Positions 2,286 through 51,990 of a stretch of 64,000 bases of DNA are shown in pieces. Source of the DNA: Mobula birostris (Eukaryota); contig NC_092394.1 in assembly GCF_030028105.1 (NCBI RefSeq), positions 30,610,752 to 30,674,751 on the forward strand. Reading direction: 5' to 3'. Numbering within the stretch: the first letter of the stretch is position 1; every line of letters begins with the position of its first letter. The notes beneath the pieces are model-generated. The model ran no database searches. It saw nothing but the letters and a program-made list of their open reading frames with translations, and was not told where the DNA came from. The position numbers and the translations under genes were made by a program.

Positions 2286-3947
2286 ACACAAGGAAATCTG
2301 CAGATGCTAGAAATTCAAGCAATGCCCACAAAAAATGCCGGTGAACACAGCAGGCCAGGCAGCATCTATAGGAAGAGGTACAGTTGACGTTTCAGGTCAG
2401 GACCTTTTGTCAGGGCTAACTGAAAGAAGAGATAGTAAGAGATTTGAAAGTGGGAGGGGGAGGGGGAGATCTGAAATGATAGAAGACAGGAGGGGAGGGG
2501 TGGATCGGATCTAAGAGCTGGAGAAGAGAGAGGATCATGGGACAGGAAGCCTGGGGAAAAGGAGAAGGGAGGGGGAGGGGAGCCCGGAGGGTGGAAAGCA
2601 GGCAAGGAATTATAGTGAGAGGGACAAAGAAAGAAAAGAGAAAAAAAGGGGAACAAAATTTTAAAAATATATAAAATAAATAAATAAGGGATGGGGTGTG
2701 AAGGGGAGGACAGGCATTAACGGAAGTTAGAGAAGTCAATATTCATGACATCAGGTTGGAGGCTACCCAGACGGAATATAAGGTGTTGTTCCTCCAACCT
2801 GAGTGTGGCTTCATCTTGACAGTAGAGGCCGTGGATAGACATATCAGAATGGGAATAGGATGTGGAATTAAAATGTGTGGCCACTGCGAGATCTTGTTTT
2901 CTCTGGCGGACAGAGCGTAGGTGTTCAGCAAAACCGTCTCCCAGCCTGCGTCGGGTCTCGCCAATACATAGAAGGTCACACCAGGAGCACCAGATGCAGT
3001 ATATCACCCCAGCCAACTCACAGGTGAAGTGTCGCCTCACCTGGAAGGACTGCCTGGGGCCCTGAATGGTGGTGAGGGAGGAAGCGTAAGGGCATGTGTA
3101 GCACTTGTTCCGTTTACAAGGATAAGTGCCGGGAGGGAGATCGGTGGGAAGGGATGGGGGGAACCGAATGAACAAGTGAGTCGTGTAGGGAACGATCCCT
3201 GCGGAAAGCAGGGGGGGGGGGGGAGAAGAGAGGAAAGATGTGCTTGGTGGTGGGATCCCGTTGGAGGTGGCAGAAGTTACGGAGAATTATACGTTGGACC
3301 CGGAGGCTGGTGGGGTGGTAGGTGAGGACAAGGGGAACCCCATTCCTAGTGGGGTGGCAGAAGGATGGGGTGAGAGCAGATGTGCGTGAAATGGGAGAGA
3401 TGCGTTTAAGAGCAGAGTTGATGGTGGAGGAAGGGAATCCTCTTTCTTTAAAAACGGAAGACATCTCCTTCGTCCTGGAATGAAAAGCCTCATCCTGAGA
3501 GCAGATGCAGCGGTGACCGAGGAATTGCGAGAAAGGGATGGCATTTTTGCAAGAGACAGGGTGGGAAGAGGAATAGTCCAGGTAGCTGTGAGAGTCCATA
3601 GGCCTGTGAGAGTAGATATCAGTAAATAAGCTGTCTCCAAAGAGAGACAGGAAGATCAGGAAAGAGGAGGGAGGTGTCGGAAATGAACCAGGTAAACTTG
3701 AGGGCAGGGTGAAAGTTGAAGGCAAAGTTAATGAAGTCAACGAGCTCTCAGCACGCGTGCAGGAAGCAGTGCCAATGCAGTTGTCAACGTAGCGAAGGAG
3801 AAGAGGGGGGACAGATACCAGTATAGGCTTGGAACATGGATTGTTCCACAAAGCCAACGAAAAGGCAGGTATAGCTGGGACCCATACAGGCGCCTGTGGC
3901 TACACCTTTAGTTTAGAGGAAGTGGGAGAAGCCAAAGGAGAAACTGA
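2286..3947 (-). mobile_element. Penelope-like element, 5'-truncated (RT C-terminus, GIY-YIG endonuclease, pLTR)
   Basis: ORF 3114..3857 contains LRYVDNCIG and SYLDYSSSHP..CKNAIPFSQF. ORF 2717..3175 contains GVIYCIWC..CIGETRRRL..EHLRSV (GIY-YIG). A degenerate hammerhead lies at 2382-2417. The element is frameshifted. Confidence 0.9.
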
Positions 3948-6567
3948 TTGTCAAAACTACAGGACTCTTGAAACCAGTTTTAATATGCCTCACCACCCTT
4001 TCAGACAGCAAGTCTCAGATCATGGCTACATAAATGTGCTTTACCTCATATCACCCCCATAATTAGACAAGCTGAGGCATCCAAAAAAACCCCACTAATG
4101 TACAAGTTGCTAGCCAGAAAGAAAAAACGCATGAACAGTATTGAGGTTATGCTCAATACCTGTAACCTATAAAATCTGAAATTGTTTAAAAATTATCCAA
4201 GTAGCTAAGCCACAGAGTTCATTTCCCTACAAAATGAAAGCCCATCAAGTTTTAGCATTCACAAAGGAATCCCATTCCCATTATTTTCCATGTAACCTAT
4301 TCTCCCCATGTTCACATCAATTACCACCAGATTTTACCTTTTACCTTCTCATTACGGGCAATTTAAATAGCCAATTAACCTACTTATGCACACATCTGTG
4401 ACCTGCTAAAAGAAACCAGAGGTCCAGATTGAACCCAAATTACCATGAAAAAAAACACTAAGTTTGCTCCTACTTGCAATCAAAAAATCCCTGCTTACAC
4501 AACACAACATGGTGCTGTCATCTTTACTGCTGTAAATGTTTACATTTTCAATTAGTTGGTCACTAAAAGATTTAATAAAAGGGTGTGAGAGAAAAGTAAA
4601 TAATGGAGAACTATAATGAATACTAACTTGTATTTGTCCTTGGATAGACAAAACCACATTCCCAGTGAATTTATACACTGTGAATAGAGAAGCGCTATAA
4701 TCAGGGTTTAATATTTTGTGCAGTTGCCAACATTGTACTTCCAGCTTTAAAGCCAGATTTGACCAAATATCTCTCAGAACTTAGTCACATCAAATTTAAT
4801 ATATTAAGTACTTCAAATAATGAAAATAAATTTAAAATACTGTAAATATTCAGGTTTGAGAGCATCTGGAGTGAGAATATTTCAAAGTCAGGCCAAGTTG
4901 GAAATCATAAGCACTTTTAAGTCATAGATAACATCAAGAATGGAGGCTCTGCCTGTGATAAGAGTGAAGATAAGACTAGTGACAGGAACTGGTAGTCCCA
5001 GTTGAGAGGGGGTAAAGGCTTGTCCCTAGATCATCTGCAAGTGGCTTTTAAGTAGGGTGAGGATGACCTGGTCAAAATTGTATCTCCCTCTTCCTTGTTC
5101 CACTGCAGCACCTCCAGATGAAGCTGCCAAAATTGAAAGGGTCCACTAAGGTTTTAATGTCAGTAGTGTTCCTAGATCTTCATTGCCCTGCATACTCTTG
5201 GTTCTCCTTATCCACCAACTTCACCAACTCAAAACATTTAATTCCTAACACTTCCTACTGTTGGTAAAATATCAGACTTGAACCATCTCCACTGCTATGT
5301 GACCTGTCGAGTACTTCCAGCACCTTCATTTTAGTGTACTGTTCTTAAAACTTGTGACTCATCATAGTCCATAGAAAAACCAAAAAAATTATAGCTGTTA
5401 CCACAAGGTCTTAACAAAGTGACATTCTATGTTACTATTTTACAAAATATTTTTCCCTGAGATCTTTAAACTGTTTGGATCAGCTAACATGGACAGGAAA
5501 ACAGAACTGGAGAGCCTTTGTCAGTCTTTCATTGTAATATTAGTTTTCATGTAGGAAATTTGAGACATCGCCATAATGTATGCTAATCTAAACCTAGGCA
5601 ATTTTGCAGTTGCATCATTGCATATATTTGGAGAGGAATAACAGCAAAAAATGCCTCAAAGCTGAATGATGTTAAAATTTTCTATCAATAAACCCAAATT
5701 AAGAACATCCACTAACGAAAACCAAAATTAATTAAAATGTCCAGATCAAACATCCACTGTCACTCAAAAAATACTTGGATGAGGTGTCCGGAAGGAACCT
5801 GCACCCTTTTGTTGTAGAGAGGAAAAACATTACAGCAAGTGTATTTTGAAGAGCACCATAGCTCATCATGTGGATTACTTAAATCCAATGCGGTAACATT
5901 TTCTTCTTTCAAACATGCTGCAAGACATAATTCATTGAATAAGACCAACCCATACAAAGCCAATTGGAAGATCCAATAATCAAAAGTGGACGTAAAACAA
6001 TGAAAACAAAATCTGTGCAATTCCAAATATATAGTTTAAGAACTTTATTTACCAATAATCAAATCAAACTGAAGCTTAATGTGCAGAGTTTAAAATATCA
6101 GAACCCGAGTTTGTATTAACCTATAACCACTAAAACCAGGAAAGTGATTTCAGAAACACTGGACTCTTAAATTTATCAGGTTTGAAAAAAAATGCATCTT
6201 CAGTATGCCACCTTACATTATGTCAAGACCTTACAAGCTTCCTATCAAAAAGAAAACTCACTCACCCCCATGCTGTCACAGCCCCAGCTTTCAGCAAAGA
6301 ACTGCTCATACACTATTTTTCAAAATTCTTCAAAATAACTGTTCACAATTATAAACTTAATTCAAAATTCTTCTGGCAATACCTTAACGAACATGCCTAC
6401 TAACCATCACTCCAATGTTCAATGACCAATAATGGCATTAAAAAAAACTTATGTCACCCCATAAATGGTCAAAACTTCCAGATGCTAACACGGAATATAA
6501 TATCAACATGCCTATCCTTTGACCAAACTTTTACTCATCCCTTGGCTTGGTGCATATCATTATTTAT

Positions 6568-12739: not shown

Positions 12740-13810
12740 AACATGGCTTGCCAACCGGCCTAAGCAAACTCAAGTTTTATTGCCACGGACACCATTTCAT
12801 TCCTGCAAGCCGAGTGAGCAAGGACTTCGGCCTCTCTGCGGAAATTTCACTCCTCCTCATCACCGATAGAGGAGGTATCGAAGAGAGAGGGAAAAAAACA
12901 ACTAGTAGGCCCGGCTCAACAACCAGGGCCTACTGCGAAAGCCCGGGGCCCTGCTGGGGCCTCCTCACCCAGGCACGGGTGGTAAACGAAGGCCCTCCTT
13001 CGCGCGGCGTCGCCCTTATTTCACCCACCGTCAACGTGTCGTCGATGTAGAGCGGGATCTGCCTCTTCTCGAAGGGGAACTCTTCCTCGCCTTCCCTGCA
13101 GACGGCCACCAGGCGCGCCATGTCGACAGCCGAAGGGGAGAGGAGGGCCGGGCCGAGTTCGACAGAGAGAGGAGGGACAGGAAAGGGAGCGGAGCCTTGA
13201 CACCACCAACCGCCGCTACCTGACGGGCCGACGGCAAGACGGGTACGAGAGGCGGCTGCTGTCTGCGGGCACAGCAGCGGCAAGCTGGAGCTAAGGGGGC
13301 ACGGAGGGGAGGGGAGCTCAGGCCGAGAGGCGAGAGGCCGGGGCGGGATCTGAGCGGACCAGGCGCAGCCTCGCTCTGGCAGCGCCGCTCTCCACCAAAA
13401 TATTCGAATAAAAATGGAGCGCGTCAGAGCCGCAGCACCGCCGGCGCCGCCGTCCGCCCCGGCAAAGAGTCCCAGACAACCGGCTCCAGCCTCCACGTTC
13501 CCACCGCGGCCCGTGGCTCCCCTTCCCCGCCCTCATCTCGCCGCTTGGCCCAGCCGGATTTCTGAAAGGAAAGTTGGATTTCAGCCGCCGTTTCAGTCTT
13601 TTTCCTAGCAGGTACGGGATACGTGGCGACAGATTAAACAGCGACCTTTCGCCTCCCTCCACCCCCGCCCCATCTGGAGACGTTGGTGAAAGTAGTCCCG
13701 CGGCCGACGACGCGTGACCGCGGAGGGCAGTGCGGGAGCGCGCGCCCGGCGCGGTATTCGGGCGCTCATTCAAATTGTGCCAAGCAAGGGAGCGGTGTCA
13801 GGGGTAGCGT
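12740..13810. promoter_or_regulatory. CpG island / GGNBP2 promoter and 5' region
   Basis: Abrupt GC- and CpG-rich segment in an AT-rich background, surrounding the GGNBP2 start codon. Confidence 0.9.
13029..13121 (-). CDS. GGNBP2: Gametogenetin-binding protein 2 (ZNF403), first coding exon
   Basis: Encodes MARLVAVCREGEEEFPFEKRQIPLYIDDTLT, nearly identical to the vertebrate GGNBP2 N-terminus. ATG context is gacATGG. Phase-0 donor ACG|GTGGGT at 13028. The next exon (MVMEFP..) was not found in 1-13028, so the intron extends beyond the window. Confidence 0.95.
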
Positions 13811-14180
13811 CTTGGGTGTTTTTTATTTATTGTAGACTTTGTTGATTTGTGACTAATCGAATAGAACCAGCGAACTGGCCGGAGATAATAATGCATAACT
13901 GGGAATTTTTTCAAGTAAATTGCAGCTGGTGAATTATTTTTGAAAATAGGAAATTTCTACAACATAATCCCCTTGCAGGCAGTATTGTGGTAATGGTAAT
14001 AAGCTTGACAAGTATATTGTATGGTCACTTACTCCTTTTTTTCTCTATAGATGCTGCATTGCCTGCAGAGTATTCAAAGAAACCCAGTTTATTGTCATAT
14101 GCACAAGGAGACTTAGGTATCACAAGTACACGACATTAGATGCGCATTGCTCACACCAAAAACATAAATTATACAAGGAA

Positions 14181-16430: not shown

Positions 16431-17651
16431 GTCCTAAATTTTTGTATGTCTTTAAAATATTAAAGCTGCAACTGTTCTGGTGGTGAGAGGGGGTTTGTCA
16501 GTTAATACGCTGATTCTTTTCAGATTTTATGGACATCACCTTGATTACATCACAAGACATTATATTTACAACTACACTTCAATAGTGAAACTCATAATGA
16601 AAAATGCTCTCAATAGTTTGTTCAAATTGATTCAGAGAGAGATGCTGAGAATGAGTATGTAATTTATTAAGTAAATTTAGAGGCACATCTTATTGGCTTT
16701 TGCTCTTGTTGACCTCAAAGTCTAGCAAATGATAATTAAAAGATTGCAGTGTCAAAACTGCAAAAATCAGCAGTGTCAGAGTCAGAGAATCTAGAATATT
16801 TCCATTACTGTTTTGTTGAACATAATACATAAAGGTGGGAGTACGCTTTATGGCCATAAAGTTTACTCTGCCATTCAATCAGATCATGGCTGAAAATGTC
16901 TCTTGGATCTACTTGTCCATCCAACCATCATCTCTCTCAATCCATTAACTTACCAACCTTAGCCTCAATGATTCTCAATACACTTGATTACTTCTTCTTT
17001 CATATTAATATCAGTTGAAAATTTAGTTAGAAGTAAAAACAAATGTACACCATCCAAGTCAACTATACAAACAGTGAACATCCGAGGGCCCATCTAATCT
17101 ATGAGGAGCTATTAATCTGCCTAGACCCATCAACCTGCACCTGGAGCATAGCCCTCCATACCCCTCACATCCATGTACCTATCCAAATTTCTCTTAAATT
17201 TTGAAATCAAACCTGCATTCATTACTTACACGGGGAGCTCATTCCACACTCTGCCCATCCTGAGTGAAGAAGTTGTCCCTTGTGTCCTTTTTCAACATTT
17301 CACCTTTCACCCTTAACCCAGGACCTTTAGTTCTAGTCACACCCAACCTCAGTGGAAGAAGCTTGCTTCCATTTATCTTATCTATACCCCTCATCATTTT
17401 GTATACGTTTATCAAATCTCCCCTCAATCGTCTACACTGCAAGGAATAAAGTCCTAACCTATTCAATCTCTCCCTATAACTCAGCTCCTCCAGTCCCAGC
17501 AATGTCCTTGTAAATTTTCTCTGCACTTTTTCAATCTTATTTTCATCTTTCCTGGAGGTAGGTGACCAAAACTAGACAAATATTCCAAGCAACACACATC
17601 AAAGTTGCTGGTGAACGTAGCAGGCCAGGCAGCATCTCTAGGAAGAGGTAC

Positions 17652-17687
17652 AGTCGACGTTTCGGGCCGAGACCCTTCATCAGGACT
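17652..17687 (-). ncRNA. Minimal type I hammerhead ribozyme motif
   Basis: Minus strand reads AGTC-CTGATGA-A-GGG(tctcgg)CCC-GAAAC-GTC^GACT. Core intact, stem I AGTC/GACT, stem II GGG/CCC, loopless palindromic stem III (ACGT). Confidence 0.8.
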
Positions 17688-17885
17688 AACTGAAGGAAGA
17701 GCTAGTAAGAGATTTGAAAGTGAGAGGGGGAGGGGGAGATCCAAAATGATAGTCCTCTCATATCCCTTTTGCCAATCACCTGTCCAGCTCTGGCTCCATC
17801 CCTCCCCCTCCTGTCTTCTCCTATCATTTTGGATCTCCCCCTCCCCCTCTCACTTTCAAATCTCTTACTAGCTCTTCCTTCAGTT

Positions 17886-17921
17886 AGTCCTGACGAAGGG
17901 TCTCGGCCTGAAACGTCGACT
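17886..17921 (+). ncRNA. Minimal type I hammerhead ribozyme motif
   Basis: AGTC-CTGACGA-A-GGG(tctcgg)CCT-GAAAC-GTC^GACT. Core intact, one G-U pair in stem II. Confidence 0.78.
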
Positions 17922-18499
17922 GCACCTCTTCCTAGAGATGCTGCCTGGCAGCAACTTTGATGTGTGTTGCTTGAATTTCCAGCATCTGCAGAATTCCTCG
18001 TGTTTACAAATATTCCAAATTAGGCCTCACGAATGTCGTATATAACTTAAACATAACAGCTTATCTCCTGTACTCAGAAGATTGATTTATGAAGGCCGAT
18101 GTGCCAAAAGGTTTCTTTACGACCCTATTTACCTCTGATGCCACTTTCAACGAATTATGGATTCCCAGATCTCTCCGTTCTACTGCACTCCTCAGTACCC
18201 TATTGCTCACCGTAGAAGACCTGCCCTAGTCGGTCCTCCCAAAGTGCAACACCTCACACTTGCCTGCATTAAGTTCCATCTGCCATTTTCAGTCCGTTCC
18301 AGCTGGTCCAGATCCTGCTGCAAGCTTTGATAGTCATCTTTGCTGTGCACTACATCCTCAAACTTCGTGTTTTATGATGTAAGAACATCCTCTAGTGCTG
18401 CATTTCAAATGCTTTTGGAAAATCCTGATATACTTTACCTTCCGGTCCCTCTTTTCTGTCCAGCTAGTTATACATGGCAGTCTCAATTTTTACATCATA

Positions 18500-25600: not shown

Positions 25601-27924
25601 GTGCAGAGAATATTGTGGAAAATAAAATTAAAACTAAGAAAAATTTGGTTTATTCTTCAAATAAAACTTGAAAAGCAAATCAAGCAATGTTATACATTAT
25701 TTAAATATATATTATGCCCCCAAAGGCAGCTACAAGGCAAGGAAATCACCCATGTAGTTATCCCAACATATAATTGGTATTAATATCTGAAATGAGATAT
25801 GCTATTGTTATGAAAAGACCCATCAGTGGAAGTACATATCATAGAGTATGGCCATCATGTACTTATTCTAGCATTTAAAAACCTGTCAGCACTATCTAAA
25901 AGGAGCTGCCAATGTGGTTTCAGTTGCATATCTTTATTGGTAGTTTGTGGTGTCTTAGAGAAGTTCTTCAACACAGAGCCAAACATCTGCTGCAAGATGG
26001 TGGACTATGTTCAGGTCAAAACACTGCATTGCTTTATTGACCTCCATTCTTCTGTAAATAGGCAGAGAAAACTCATTGTGTTGTTGTCAATAAAGCTGGA
26101 GCAAAGGCAATAAACTAGTGCAAATGCCACAATGAAAAGTGCCATGTAAATCTTTTAATAAACTTAGAAAAAATATCAGATTTCTCCCACTCTTACTCAT
26201 AGTTCTGTAAATGTTCCTCTTCATGGAGTAAACACCTCAGTCACAAACTATATACTAAAAACGGAATTTGAAGAAAGTACTGCTCTAATTCTCAGAAATG
26301 CTGCAAACAACTTTATCTTTGACTTGCTTTACCCACAAAAAAAAAGAGGGATAAATTATTTAGCCTAATCCTCAGGTGTTCTTAAATCATGATGTTAAGT
26401 ATTTTGGTGATAATTATATCACTGGCTTCCATTCTAAAATCATGGGTTCAGGCTGAGAATTCAGCATGTAACATTGTACATCATCTCATTTCTGTATTAG
26501 TAGAGATGTTATTATGTTAATAAACCTTCACCTTTCCAGGATATGAAAACTCCCATGGCACCATTTGAAGGGCAAGTTTTCCAGTGTCCTTACTAACATT
26601 AATCTTTCAGCCAACATCACTAAAAACACTAAGAGAATGTTTATCTGCCTGAAACTTTAACATGGTTTATTTCTCCACAGATGCTATCCCACCTACTGAA
26701 CATGTCCATTTATTTGTTTTTATTTATCATTAAAAAGTTATCTGGCCTTTACCTAGATGCTTGCACATTTTGACTACTGTGTTTTTGGATGTGTTAATGC
26801 TAATTAAATGTTTGATTGTAAAGGGCTTCATTTTGAGCAAATAATAAATGCTACCAAAATACAAGTGTTCTTCAAAAAAATTCTGATTAAAGAAATTCTT
26901 TTTTAAAGAAAGGGGCTTCCCTTCCTCCACCATCAACTCTGCCCTCAAACACATCTTTCCCATTTCACGCACATCTGCTCTCACCCCATCCTCCCACCAC
27001 CCCACCAGGAATAGCGTTCCCCTTGTCCTCACCTACCACCCCACCAGCCTCCGGGTCCAACATATAATTCTCCGTAACTTCCACCATCTCCAATGGGATC
27101 CCACCACCAAGCACATCTTCCCCTCCCCCCACTTTCTGCTTTCCGCAGGGATTGCTCCCTACGCGACTCCCCTGTCCATTCGTTTCCCTCCCCCCCACCC
27201 CATCCCACCGATCTCCCTCCTGGCACTTATCCTGGTAAGCGGAACAAGTGCCACACAACACATGCCCTTACACTTCCTCCCTCACCACCATTCAGGGCCC
27301 CAGACGGTCCTTCCAGGTGAGGCGACATTTCACCTGTGAGTCGGCTAGGGTGATATACTGCGTCCAGTGCTCCCGGTGTGGTCTTCTATATTTTGGTGAG
27401 ACCAGACCGCTTCGCTGAACACCTATGCTCTGTCCGCCAGAGGAAGCAGGATCTCCCAGTGGCCACACATTTTAATTCCATGTCCCATTCCAAGATGTCA
27501 ATCCATGGCCTCCTCTACTGTCGAGATGAAGCCACACTCAGGTTGGAGGAACAACACCTTATATTCTGTCCTCCAACCTGCTGGCATGAACATTGATTTC
27601 TCTAACTTCCATTAATGCCCCTCCTCCCCTTCTTACCCCATCCCTGATTTATTACTTATTTATGGAAGTTTTTTTTTCTCTCTTCCCCTCTCACAATAAC
27701 TCCTTGCCTGTTCTCCATCTTCCTCTGGTGCTCCCCTCCCCCTTTCTTTCTTCCAGGCCTTCCGTCCCATGATACAGTACTCCCCCTTCTCCAGCCTTGT
27801 ATCCCTTTTGCTAATCAACTTTCCAGCTCTTGGGTTCATCCCTCCCCCTCCTGTCTTCTCCTATCATTTTGGGTCTCCCCCTCCCCTCCCCCTTTCAAAT
27901 CTTTTTCTATCTCTTTTTTCTGTT

Positions 27925-27960
27925 AGTCCTGACGAAGGGTCTCGACCCGAAACGTCGACT
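27925..27960 (+). ncRNA. Minimal type I hammerhead ribozyme motif
   Basis: AGTC-CTGACGA-A-GGGT(ctcg)ACCC-GAAAC-GTC^GACT. All core nucleotides intact. Predicted cut after 27956. Confidence 0.82.
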
Positions 27961-28066
27961 GTACTTCTTCCTGTAGATAACACAAAATACTCTGCAGATG
28001 GTGGGGTCAAAGCAACACTCACAACACACTGGAGGAACTCAGTGTGGGCAGCATCCGTGGAAACCA

Positions 28067-28106
28067 TCAGTCAACATTTCGGGCCGGAACCCTTCTTCAG
28101 GACTGA
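28067..28106 (-). ncRNA. Minimal hammerhead ribozyme motif (variant)
   Basis: TCAGTC-CTGAAGA-A-GGG(ttccgg)CCC-GAAAT-GTT^GACTGA, with a 6-bp stem I. Confidence 0.65.
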
Positions 28107-28350
28107 AGAGGGAGGTGGAATCTGCCCCCTCTCCCAGCTGCCTATCACCTCCCTCATGGTTCTGCCTCCTTCTACTACCCATTGTGTTTTCCCCTATTCC
28201 TTCTTCACCTTTCCTGCCTATCACCTCCCTGCTTCCCCTCCCCAACCCCTTTATCTTTCCTCTTACTGGTTTTTCATCCGGAACCTACCAGCCTTCTCCT
28301 TCCTACCCTCCCCCCACCGTCTTTATAGGGCCTCTGTGCCTTCCCGCTTC

Positions 28351-28386
28351 AGTCCTGACGAAGGGTTCCAGCCTGAAATGTTGACT
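28351..28386 (+). ncRNA. Minimal hammerhead ribozyme motif (variant)
   Basis: AGTC-CTGACGA-A-GGG(ttccag)CCT-GAAAT-GTT^GACT. Predicted cut after 28382. Confidence 0.62.
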
Positions 28387-28802
28387 CATTTCCACGGATG
28401 CTGCCCGACCTGTTGAGTTCCTCCAGCGTGTTGTGAGTCTTCCTATAGATGCTGCCTGGCCTGCTGCGTTCCATCAGCATTTTGTGTGCGCTGATTAAAA
28501 TACTGTATTAATTGGTTTTGTTGAATTCTAGATTTGACCTTGACAAAATCTTTGCTCTTCCCTATACTTTTAAAGCATTAGATCGCCATCTGAAACTTTT
28601 TTTTATTAATGGTGACAGATTATAATTAACTCTAATAAGTACTCCCACACACACAAACGCTGTTTGGTAAGTTGTCCTAAGAAAATGGACAGCGGCAGTT
28701 AAATTCCTTCTTTCTTCTTCGTGATTTGGTGGAATGCTTTTGGTGCCTCATCCTTAAAACTGCCTGAGGTCAACTAATTCAGTCTTCAATGGGGAATCAT
28801 CT

Positions 28803-33898: not shown

Positions 33899-35425
33899 TC
33901 ACCAGAACTTTAAAGTAATGTCTTTGATATGCAAAATATATACAAAGGTACAATTGCATAATGTATAAACCAACAGTACAAATAAGGAAATAAATGTGTT
34001 GGTATGAATAGTATCTACAGTAAGATTCACCAAACCTGTCAAAACATTAGATTGCAGGAAAAACAGTAGTTGGTTTCTGCTTATGGCATCGATAAGACAG
34101 AAACGTATCGTGGTTTTATCTACTTTTTCCACAGCATTGTTTTTGAACAAAGTCCTTTCTTTTCTGTGTCGGGCAGAATCCGGTAAAATGTTCCATGAAC
34201 ACGGCACGTTAGTCATCCCTGACAGAAATTTGACAAATACCAGCACAAAATCAGCAAGCATTTTCACACTGATAAAAAATAAACTCTGCTCAACTGTCCA
34301 TATGATGTAACTGAGATTAGCCAACCGGCGCGATACAGGTTCTGTGAGTACCTCGCACACATGCAACAGTAACAATAACAGCAAAGTGCTCACTGCAAGG
34401 CAACCCTGAATTTTTATCCAGTCTATTACCAACATCCTCTTCTTCATAATAAAAATGCCAGTCTGAACACCAGCCATGTAAATAGATACATATCCAAACA
34501 TTGAAAAGAGTCCTTCTCTGTTAGCATTAATGAACCCATCCCTGGTATCTTTGCCATCACTGCCATGTAATATGAATTGCTTCAAATTTGTTGTTTCAAG
34601 GAGTAATTGATAACATATAGCAATGCCACATGACAGAATCCATGATCTTCTGACAGAACATAATATCAAAAGAAAAGATGACAGGATCCTAACTATTGCC
34701 AGTGTGAAAAAGAAATTCCAGTGCAAACCATATTCAGAGATATGCTCATGATAATTCACAGTCTTAACACTAAATAGACGAGCTAATCCCAAGAAAACTA
34801 ATGGCCAGACTGCTATTATCTGTTTCACTACAGAAACCAATTTAGAATGTGATACAATTTTGTTCCTCTGTCTTGTTTCAGGAGAAACAAGTGCATTTGA
34901 AAATACAAAAGCTGCTGTACCAAAATCCATATACCCAGTGCCATATGTTTCAGCTTTAGCAAAACGTCTTGGAAATATTGGAAAGTCCACAGCTAGAATG
35001 CAGATGCTAGTCAGTATGTTAACATAGACTCGAAACAAGGTGACAAAGGGAATATGATCCATATCCAGACTGGTTTCCAAAAATCCTGCCATGACATCTT
35101 GGAAGTTCTGATGGATACTCCTTTTTCTCTGACAGTATACCTGAAATATAGATATCACCAAAACAGCTACTAGACCCAGCACTATCCAGTGAAGCACATC
35201 CGACAAAACAGTGCAGAAGAATACAGGCAGTGCCACCAGTACAACAAAGTCGATCAACAGGAATTTTCTCCACACCGATTCTGTAGCTCCTCCAAAGAAA
35301 TACATTAAAACCAGTCCTCGATAGACGACACATAATGCACATGAAATCAAAGCCACTGAATTCTCAGTCAGAGTAGTACCATTCAGGTTACTGACAAAGG
35401 CTTCTTTGTATTCTTTTTGTTTCAT
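33899..35425 (-). CDS. PIGW: GPI inositol acyltransferase PIG-W (GWT1 family), 508 aa, single coding exon
   Basis: KEAFVSNLNGTT N-terminus, ILAVDFPIFPRRFAKAETYGTGYMDFG, YHEHISEYGLHWNFFFTL, ANREG, VSRRLANL and C-terminal KFW. Multi-pass hydrophobic protein. Splice acceptor (minus: ttttttttcccag|) 17 nt upstream of the ATG; the exon starts at 35442. Confidence 0.97.
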   Translation of the reverse strand: MKQKEYKEAFVSNLNGTTLTENSVALISCALCVVYRGLVLMYFFGGATESVWRKFLLIDFVVLVALPVFFCTVLSDVLHWIVLGLVAVLVISIFQVYCQRKRSIHQNFQDVMAGFLETSLDMDHIPFVTLFRVYVNILTSICILAVDFPIFPRRFAKAETYGTGYMDFGTAAFVFSNALVSPETRQRNKIVSHSKLVSVVKQIIAVWPLVFLGLARLFSVKTVNYHEHISEYGLHWNFFFTLAIVRILSSFLLILCSVRRSWILSCGIAICYQLLLETTNLKQFILHGSDGKDTRDGFINANREGLFSMFGYVSIYMAGVQTGIFIMKKRMLVIDWIKIQGCLAVSTLLLLLLLHVCEVLTEPVSRRLANLSYIIWTVEQSLFFISVKMLADFVLVFVKFLSGMTNVPCSWNILPDSARHRKERTLFKNNAVEKVDKTTIRFCLIDAISRNQLLFFLQSNVLTGLVNLTVDTIHTNTFISLFVLLVYTLCNCTFVYILHIKDITLKFW

Positions 35426-35442
35426 TTTGGATTATTTTTCAC

Positions 35443-43951: not shown

Positions 43952-45179
43952 GTATCTAATCAATTGGTGTTTTGTTTCTTCTGAAGTACTTTGTAAGCTG
44001 ATTGACGTTTAGCATAACATTTGCTGAACAGAAGGCAGTATTGGAAGAGGAGGGCATATACACCTGAGTGAAGTACAACAGTAAATATGAAATAAGCCAC
44101 TTAGAATGCCATGATAGACACCTTCTGAAAAATGAGCATAAGTAAAGGTTGATCCCTTTAACATTGTTTTTGGGATATGTTGGTTTGACAAGTTTATAAC
44201 GATGTTCTCCTGTGTGTGTTATCCAACTTCTGAGGTCTGGAAATTACGACAAATGGTTCAAAAGCTGATTTTTGAAAAAAACTTCAAAATGCCCATCAAG
44301 CCATGACATGTCAGTAGAGAAAGTTAATATTTCAGGCCATTCATCAGGTGTTGGAAAAGTTTAAATATCGAACAGTTTAAGTGAGAGAAAAGAGTGAGTG
44401 GCTGGGAAGGTGGAGGCAATAAAAAATAGTAATTATATGATGGAGACCATGAATGACAGAAAAAATATTGCTGCTGGCTGAGGGACAATGCTAAAGGGTT
44501 GTTAACTACAACTGACCCATAAGGAGGGGTGTAAAGAAAAAATCACAACAAAGGACGGGGAAAAAATATGAAATCTTTTCACATTTAACAGATAGTAGTT
44601 GCTTGAACTCTAATGTATAATGCAGAAAATGGCACCTATTTTCAATTCCAGACACATTGTAATCGGTAAATTTTCATCATTTTTCTCTTAATGGCTCCAC
44701 TTTATACTATTTATTTACCGTTTGTCTCCATTCTGCCATAGACATTGTCCTCTCCACTGCTCCCCTTTCTTTGCAGATTAAAGTGTGTTTTATTTCTAAC
44801 TTTTTTCCCCAGTTCTAATGAAAAGTTATCAAAATGAAATGTTAACCTTTGTTTCTCCATTTATAGGTGTTGCCTGTCATTGCCAAATGTTTCTAATTTT
44901 TTTTGTTTTTATTTCAGACTTCCAATAACTATAGTTCTTGCCTTTTATAATGGAACTGCAGTGTAAACAAGACCTTGTATTTGAAAAGAAAATAGTTATT
45001 TTTGTAGATACTTGGTTGTTATGCACAGTGACTTGATAATCTAAATGGTTTGGATTACTTAGTTGAAATCTGAACCATTCAGATTAACAAATCACTGTGC
45101 ATAATGCATTAGATTACAGTATTTTTTAATAAGCAATTTGTATGAATTGAACTGTGAATATTTTTTTTATGTCTCTTAG

Positions 45180-45328
45180 TTTTAAAATGTCTCCAGGCAA
45201 GATATGCAGCTGGTGTTTTTTACACTAATGCGGGTTGTACATTAGTGGGTCTAAATCCATTCCAGTCTGTGCCAAACTTGTATTCCTCTGAGGTCATGAA
45301 AGAATACCACAATGTGACTCGACCACAG
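45180..45328 (+). CDS. MYO19: Myosin XIX coding exon 3
   Basis: cttag| VLKCLQARYAAGVFYTNAGCTLVGLNPFQSVPNLYSSEVMKEYHNVTRPQ |gtaact. 149 nt. Confidence 0.95.
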
Positions 45329-45723
45329 GTAACTCAAGTACACTTCGGTGCTTTATTTGACTGCAATAAGCAAATAACATTATTCATCCTTGATTACAAA
45401 TTCTATACATATATAAACAGAACATTAATATTTAATTTGTGTCCAGTTTATTCTGGTCATTTATTTGCGATCAGACCGTATTTAGATTAATACCCAAAGC
45501 TGAGTGAAAACTTTTGATTTGTGGACAATGCATATTAAGAATACAGAAGCTGCAGCTTATTGATTTGTGTAGTAAGAATGGTTAGAATCCAGGATATAGT
45601 CATCAGCAGCAGTTGCAGGTTCATATTAATACTAGTACCTTATTAAAATAATTTGAGAGGGTAGTTTTTACTACTTTGTACAAAAACAAACTTTCAAAAA
45701 AGTTAACTCTCTGTATTCTTTAG

Positions 45724-51195: not shown

Positions 51196-51336
51196 TTTGT
51201 TTAAAATTCAACATCAGAAAGATGACCAAGGCACATGTCAGCAGAAGTACTAGTTCATAATAGCAATGTTTTCAAGATCCATAATAGAAAGCTTCTCAGC
51301 TTTGTCAAGCTAATTAATAAGATTTCCCTTTTGCAG

Positions 51337-51469
51337 ACCTGGACGTCGCGTTGCCTTATGAATTACTTTGCCACACTTGCTGCCTCAAACACTTCTATAA
51401 AGTGCCAAGAAAATGTGGAACGAATAGAAAAGAGAGTATTGGACTCCAATCCAGTGATGGAGGCATTTG
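51337..51469 (+). CDS. MYO19: Myosin XIX coding exon 5
   Basis: ttgcag| TWTSRCLMNYFA..ERIEKRVLDSNPVMEAF(G) |gtagta. 133 nt. Confidence 0.96.
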
Positions 51470-51990
51470 GTAGTAAAACTTGTTGCTTATGTCAGATTGA
51501 ATGTTTAAAAAATGAATGATTGGCGCAGATGAAATATTATTTACTCTAGCATATGGGATCAAAGTCTAATTGTTTACAGGGCTGAATAGATTCTCAGATG
51601 TCGCAGAGTACGTATGTGCTAAGAATCATATAGGGTTTGAAGGCTATCACTCTTTGGTGTAAGAATGTCTGCTGATTGTTGCTCCTTATTCTCCGTAAAG
51701 TTGTGAATATTGTTTCTGTGTTGTGAGTGGTGTATTAGTGTATCTATTTCAGTATTTTAAAAAAGTACAAAAGAGCTAATGTGTCTTCTGAAACTATATA
51801 AATAGCAAACAGTAAACTAAACATTCAAGTACATCATTCTGAATGTGGTGAGCATCATCTCAGACAATTTGAGAACAAGAAAGTAATTCCCTGTTTTGAG
51901 ATATTGGAAAAAGTAGTTGACTAATTTTATATTGAGTGTGTGCACCACCTAGTGGACTACTGAAGGATGTCACTTGCTTAAATATTGGAG

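Follow-up and report, generated by a model that had tools for sequence, protein, structure and literature searches.

The analysed window, a 64,000-nucleotide stretch at C29:30.61-30.67 Mb of the 4.0-Gb Mobula birostris genome, holds a 417-bp insert that encodes no protein and that appears, by inspection of open reading frames only, to be intergenic. A scan of 50 of the 154 non-repeat open reading frames (ORFs) identified a 510-aa GWT1 (PIGW) protein encoded in a single ORF on the minus strand (33902-35431) and myosin-head exons on the plus strand (45158-45487 and 51226-51516). A minus-strand coding start, presumably that of GGNBP2, is situated within a CpG island at 13001-14000, and the gene order around the insert is taken to resemble the vertebrate MYO19-PIGW-GGNBP2 block. 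The insert is located ~16 kb downstream of the GWT1/PIGW ORF and ~3.6 kb upstream of the CpG-island gene start.

A repeat search of the sequence showed that the insert is bounded by identical 13-mers at 17576-17588 and 18006-18018 (plus strand). It lies within an older high-copy repeat (17289-18305, with 300 bp examined on each side) that is presumably a CR1-type LINE, and the two flanks of the insert gave 51 and 34 matches in a 1.6-Mb genomic sample plus the window. When the flanks were aligned separately by BLAST to these same sequences, they overlapped by exactly 13 bp in 11 of the 15 colinear paralogous pairs, the other four giving -12, -16, -24 and -27. Because the site is present once and the insert is lacking in these 11 pairs, the 13-bp repeats represent a true target site duplication (TSD), as a preliminary description of this DNA had proposed for a 417-bp insert. 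The three nucleotides at the end of the left TSD copy also fit the continuation of the element, a possible priming microhomology.

With element positions numbered from the tail end (position 0), the insert resolves into two arms that abut at 17752/17753, with neither overlap nor filler. The left arm (17589-17752, minus strand) is the 3' end of a 5'-truncated Penelope-like element (PLE), spans element positions -198 to -35 and has no tail. The right arm (17753-18005, plus strand) aligns to -268 to 0 and terminates with the 35-nt Penelope tail (17971-18005), a feature defined in PMC8557442 that was absent from the preliminary description. The inverted arms recognized earlier are borne out by two matching blocks, 17624-17752 with 17821-17949 (129 nt, 98%) and 17586-17610 with 17949-17973 (25 nt, 100%), the match being divided because the right arm has a private 14-nt deletion (17949/17950, plus strand). 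That deletion was considered as a marker of source or lineage and rejected, as it gave six exact matches genome-wide. The 68 nt that separate the inverted arms 17586-17752 and 17821-17973 had been regarded as a ~70-nt spacer, a part of the claim that does not stand: they are additional 3'UTR/pLTR present only in the longer arm (17753-17820, plus strand). The two arms belong to the long class described below, differ at 3 of 148 sites overall and at one of seven non-CpG diagnostic sites, and share a variant at -169 that occurs in just two of 92 other copies. The copy is young.

Many loci resemble the right half of the insert, with matches at 91-94%. Upstream of this region, sister copies encode a GIY-YIG domain with a C-x4-C-xx-C linker ahead of it (seen in L027). 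A protein search yielded 245,362 first-look candidates, 128 of which were scored. The ORFs of two long copies, 1,047 and 1,064 aa in length, contain RVT_1 followed by GIY-YIG (E values of 1e-5 to 7e-3, below the Pfam gathering scores) and run without interruption into the pLTR to which the window arm matches. Judged from this domain order, the parent is an endonuclease-positive (EN+) PLE, which bears out the Penelope origin claimed earlier, and is probably Neptune-like, a clade assignment made from one linker motif. In the open text of PMC8557442, a CX2-5CxxC linker between the reverse transcriptase (RT) and the endonuclease is tied to Neptune, and Nematis also possesses a linker motif. The features of an EN+ PLE insertion are present in the insert, namely an inverted 5'-truncated copy, a 30-40-bp one-sided tail and a TSD with an empty site. 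The near-full-length copy L102 (G000:C3:93595500-93605499) combines an inverted tailed arm with a tail-less far end, and its direct partial pLTR continues through the tail into the ORF region, a textbook partial tandem in which the one-tail rule is obeyed. At L014 and L032, a segment of the RT region is inverted against a segment of the endonuclease region with little overlap, resembling L1-type twin priming. L032 also contains a tandem array of ~68-bp units with long open frames (3319-5431) that is unrelated to the insert.

Each arm carries a minimal type I hammerhead motif with an intact core, at 17652-17687 on the minus strand and at 17886-17921 on the plus strand. The predicted cuts, presumed from the hammerhead consensus, fall between 17656 and 17655 and between 17917 and 17918, respectively. 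Both motifs pass a strict descriptor (stem I of 4 bp, CUGANGA, stem II, GAAA, the ACGU palindrome and GUC) that gave no matches in 1.6 Mb of shuffled sequence. They comprise the CUGANGA/GAAA/NUH core, stems I and II and a palindromic remnant of helix III, in agreement with the earlier recognition of one intact minimal hammerhead of the dimer type on each strand. In the window, the strict descriptor detected five motifs, and BLAST located eight motif-bearing places (five nearer to the focal family and three belonging to a second family) together with one partial, consistent with the previous count of at least eight motifs from two families. The second, older Penelope-like family includes a head-to-head pair at 28068-28479 with its own minimal hammerhead variant (motifs at 28100, minus strand, and 28355, plus strand), which adjoins a longer main-family copy at 26898-27978. 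An Rfam scan returned no hammerhead family match. Six miRNA and snoRNA matches at E<=1, all below the gathering scores, were rejected as hairpin artefacts; no Rfam match reached the gathering score for membership among miRNA precursors. Genome-wide, one 35-nt hammerhead pattern has 34,208 exact matches, and the descriptor leads to an estimate of ~88,000 motifs (bootstrap 60,000-118,000). The very large population of ribozyme motifs that had been anticipated, with a genome-wide count proposed, is thus present.

Folding calculations bear on whether these motifs could act as ribozymes. The full insert is predicted to fold into a hairpin at -302.9 kcal/mol (z -27), in which stems I and II of the hammerhead have probabilities of about 1e-43 and 1e-20, respectively, on either strand. 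The corresponding predicted probabilities are 0.0005-0.001 and 0.02-0.06 for a single-arm transcript, and 0.82 and 0.93 for the isolated 36-mer. RNA spanning both arms would be predicted to bury its single ribozyme in a ~150-bp duplex, in line with the earlier proposal of a long hairpin that masks the ribozyme in a read-through transcript. Since the hammerheads reside on opposite strands, no cis dimer forms within one RNA, and an intermolecular 4-bp helix III is predicted to be worth just -1.7 kcal/mol. The folding model is one of equilibrium; co-transcriptional or protein-assisted folding ahead of the second arm could make trans cleavage possible.

Sequence divergence suggests that the cores largely decay together with their surroundings. 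In young copies, the core has accumulated differences at a rate similar to that of the 3' flank (18/573 versus 98/3947, p=0.32). Old copies compared with the young reference show a slightly less different core (80/636 versus 726/4504, p=0.023), and within the old group the core is not conserved above the flank (p 0.65). Core decay that matches the flank, as within the young copies, is as expected of dead copies. As inserted cores appear to decay like flanks and many reside in predicted hairpins, the number of motifs should not be taken for the number of active ribozymes. The hammerhead core begins at -129, and the predicted cut falls after -102. Both focal arms span the cut site and must thus have been copied through an uncut ribozyme. 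Cleavage by the ribozyme as the origin of 5' ends was also considered and rejected, because only one of 73 young arms ends at -105..-98 versus 23 at -139..-131, some of the latter being inflated by junction overlap. The sole case among the 73 is a single-arm copy in block B161 (G000:C7:110026272-110026372) that starts exactly at the predicted cut (-101).

The point at which many arms end, about -135, is also where the two families diverge and where the short arms stop. The element stretch -152 to -133 (window about 17867-17886), just 5' of hammerhead stem I, can be read as an initiator-like site. The same stretch also resembles a splice acceptor, in that a pyrimidine tract is followed by AG and a branch-point-like motif is present. 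Both possibilities have precedents: the open text of PMC4209133 maps an intron end of the D. virilis element to the 5' end of helix I, and that of PMC2377424 describes a pLTR promoter with an Inr. A canonical splice to -135 was found in none of the 15 joints listed of 359 on a sister copy, in contigs from four putative RNA runs of other organisms in which ends and strand are not resolvable. These other-organism contigs exhibit a depth step at -135 that is explicable by the copy number of stubs together with the divergence of the second family there.

The architecture of the family was sampled in 32 hand-placed 50-kb blocks at round coordinates (1.6 Mb of the 4.0-Gb genome), and clusters without a match of >=85% identity were excluded from the architecture counts. 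Head-to-head pairs make up 28 of the 49 young 3'-end clusters, the remaining 21 being single or of other forms, which scales to ~70,000 fold-backs genome-wide (bootstrap 40,000-103,000). In all 29 pairs, including the focal one, exactly one arm carries the tail (binomial p 2e-9 against 50%). A TSD was called in 28 of the 29 pairs versus 4 of 60 random controls; its length is 13-14 bp in 19 of the 27 TSDs of >=10 bp, and its AT content is 0.71 versus 0.58 for the genome. Arm ends cluster at -6..+9; of the 23 tail-less arms that align cleanly, 18 end at -32..-39. The tail-less arm reaches >5 nt further 5' than the tailed arm in 8 of the 29 pairs, one of which shows no overlap at all. Both hammerhead cores are intact in just 3 of the 29.

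Arm lengths fall into two classes, with 21 short/short, 6 long/long and 1 mixed pair (p 2e-5). Among the 21 short pairs, 16 have a longer arm that ends at -131..-139, and no pair has its longer arm ending between -140 and -174; three rows with equal ends at -135/-135 reflect alignment overlap at a near-palindrome. The short class accounts for ~60% of arms in the sample, in which short arms are over-represented relative to the genome. Genome-wide pattern counts of 59,599 reaching upstream of -137 and 80,205 downstream, together with a deficit in the sample (16 seen versus 23.8 expected), suggest that the short class is nearer 40%.

The paired arms usually share a subfamily, but not invariably. 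Of 18 long pairs, at least one combines two subfamilies, and three more are intermediate. The former, in block B046 (G000:C4:30003429-30005034), has arms that disagree at 9 of 22 diagnostic sites and lie within a single 14-bp TSD, which points to two RNA templates. A rule that both arms always come from one RNA is consequently not upheld. Another candidate for a mixed-subfamily pair, L008, was dropped because its arms do not adjoin each other.

A 28-nt pattern across the focal junction has a single match in 4.0 Gb, and junction coordinates differ across the 29 fold-backs. A unit with a unique junction, in a population whose junctions vary, does not spread as such. The focal insert is a one-off in which two 5'-truncated 3' ends of the element stand head to head, and it does not constitute a family of its own; the mini-element of the preliminary description is not supported on this point.

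The insert is very probably a single, doubly truncated PLE insertion, likely arising from a two-strand cut and reverse transcription from each end, with the hammerheads as predicted inactive passengers. This reading builds on the directly observed parentage, arm coordinates, target duplication, one-sided tail and unique junction. The endonuclease would cut both DNA strands 13 nt apart, a geometry that the genomic pattern suggests. The same pattern suggests that one target 3' end would prime at the tail end (position 0) and the other target strand at a second start site ~35 nt upstream. Both cDNAs would then pass the uncut hammerhead into the 3'UTR and stop at -268 and -198, to be joined end to end, with fill-in yielding the duplication. 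Such a scheme has a biochemical precedent in a lizard PLE protein that, according to the open text of PMC11167929, cleaves and extends both strands in vitro, starts at two RNA sites bounding the tail, accepts uncut RNA, favours AT-rich DNA and was modelled as a dimer. Microhomology-directed priming was considered as an additional feature and set aside: the signal was strong at first and became marginal once the bias of maximal TSD calling was modelled, with a mean primer microhomology of 1.1 nt versus a null of 0.71-0.79 (p 0.04 and 0.07).

Several observations could also be explained by self-priming, in which one cDNA folds back and is copied into the inverted arm, a model proposed for PLEs on an antisense template (PMC3846280). 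It would account for the resemblance of paired arms, which are closer to each other than random copies are (divergence of 0.057 versus 0.077, p 5e-5) and concordant at 92 of 114 polymorphic sites (61% when permuted; the set includes CpG sites), for the agreement of their length classes, and for the -169 variant shared in the focal copy, where the tailed arm is also the longer one. However, the tail-less arm outreaches the tailed arm in 8 of the 29 pairs and thus is not a fold-back copy of the tailed cDNA, and the mixed-subfamily pair, the focal junction without overlap and the diagnostic site at which the focal arms disagree also argue against it. Moreover, the stop of the second arm at about -35 would be left unexplained. 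Self-priming, the main rival, is therefore considered unlikely, though less so for the focal copy taken by itself; the concordance of arm lengths might also come from coupled termination of two RTs.

An alternative in which the insert is itself a palindromic mini-element (MITE- or retrozyme-like), propagating and moving as one unit while its ribozymes process the transcripts, would fit a palindromic, non-coding, TSD-flanked copy with both cores intact, a rare state among the fold-backs, as well as the many short fold-backs with arm ends near -135. The single genome-wide match of the junction largely refutes this explanation, and the variation of junction coordinates, the absence of a tandem direct array and the predicted sequestration of the ribozymes make it still harder to maintain, such that its probability is close to negligible. 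An exapted regulatory hairpin, which would be transcribed and would either give rise to siRNA or piRNA silencing the family or tune a neighbouring gene, is improbable to a high degree. The fold is very stable on either strand, the CpG-island gene start is close by, and with an estimated ~70,000 fold-backs some must collectively sit in introns. However, the stability is a trivial consequence of inverted arms, the copy is young and embedded in an older repeat, its 14-nt deletion is unrepaired, and no exon evidence places it in a transcript.

Insertion from two ends, the preferred reading of the focal copy, may extend to the whole population. On balance, with only a slight preference, the ~70,000 fold-backs are regarded as a fossil record of integration by a dimer that makes a 13-14-nt staggered cut, uses obligatorily different RNA starts and runs off at the RNA 5' end. 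The two starts, for the most part on RNA with a common source, would be the tail end and a site ~35 nt upstream of it, and synthesis of the short products would end where the RNA itself begins, at -133 to -137, and not at the ribozyme cut. This reading was not found stated in open-access text. If true, it would replace self-priming and provide a quantitative in vivo counterpart of the 2024 in vitro work.

The fold-back architecture (PMC8557442) and pairs of hammerheads on opposite strands (PMC4209133) are already published in the open texts of these sources. Taken alone, the insert carries little weight, as the genome contains tens of thousands of scars of this published kind. Their interest lies in their number: together they form a very large natural data set on Penelope integration, from which TSD lengths, arm pairing and adherence to the strict one-tail rule can be counted. 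Mechanistic promise is confined to these family statistics, which can be converted into direct biochemical tests.

In L1 twin priming, the second target strand primes internally on the RNA, resulting in an inverted 5' segment and a TSD, and the two segments do not overlap. In contrast, in the fold-backs described here one stretch is usually copied by both segments, and the second start has a fixed position near -35. A MITE-like family would share an amplified junction, whereas that of the focal insert has one genome-wide match. Non-LTR retrozymes (PMC7229834; bioRxiv 10.64898/2026.07.22.740005) resemble the insert, as far as their open texts describe them, in being non-coding and pLTR-derived with a type I hammerhead. 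Their units, however, are arranged head to tail in tandem, and each has a single ribozyme that points the same way as the others, whereas the focal insert is head-to-head and non-recurring, with its motifs on opposite strands.

Closer parallels are found among PLEs. Cervera and De la Pena (2014, PMC4209133) reported, in the text available, paired minimal hammerheads in metazoan PLEs that lie on opposite strands with ~100-700 bp between them, as well as dispersed motifs related to truncated PLEs; in vitro, the monomer was inactive and the dimer weakly active. The motifs in the window likewise lack helix III, have a palindrome around 15.2-16.2 and a short helix I. They differ in occurring in a new host lineage and in greater numbers than the 4,000 of coelacanth and 9,000 of Xenopus (PMC4209133), yet in smaller numbers than the 126,247 canonical motifs of axolotl (PMC7229834), comparisons across differing descriptors. 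EN+ PLEs typically have a one-sided tail and, next to the 5' end, an inverted 5'-truncated copy (Craig et al. 2021, PMC8557442). With the insertions described in the open texts of that paper and of Arkhipova et al. (2013, PMC3846280; Pen2a), the insert has in common the inverted truncated copy, the short TSD, the pLTR hammerhead, a parent with RT followed by GIY-YIG, and a 30-40-bp tail that is often at one end. Unlike in those insertions, both arms are too short to retain an ORF, the TSD is 13-14 bp versus 8-10 bp in the rotifer examples, and the one-tail pattern is strict, where these sources use "often" or "optionally". Finally, the pattern resembles that of PAc/Poseidon of Anolis in vitro (Frangieh et al. 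2024, PMC11167929) in its AT-rich targets, and hammerhead cleavage was unneeded there. It would also resemble that system in its two RT starts bounding the tail and in the extension of both strands, as the genomic pattern suggests for the ray element. PAc belongs to a clade different from that of the Neptune-like linker, and no difference between strands in the choice of start is reported for it, whereas the genomic pattern in this ray implies one arm per site.
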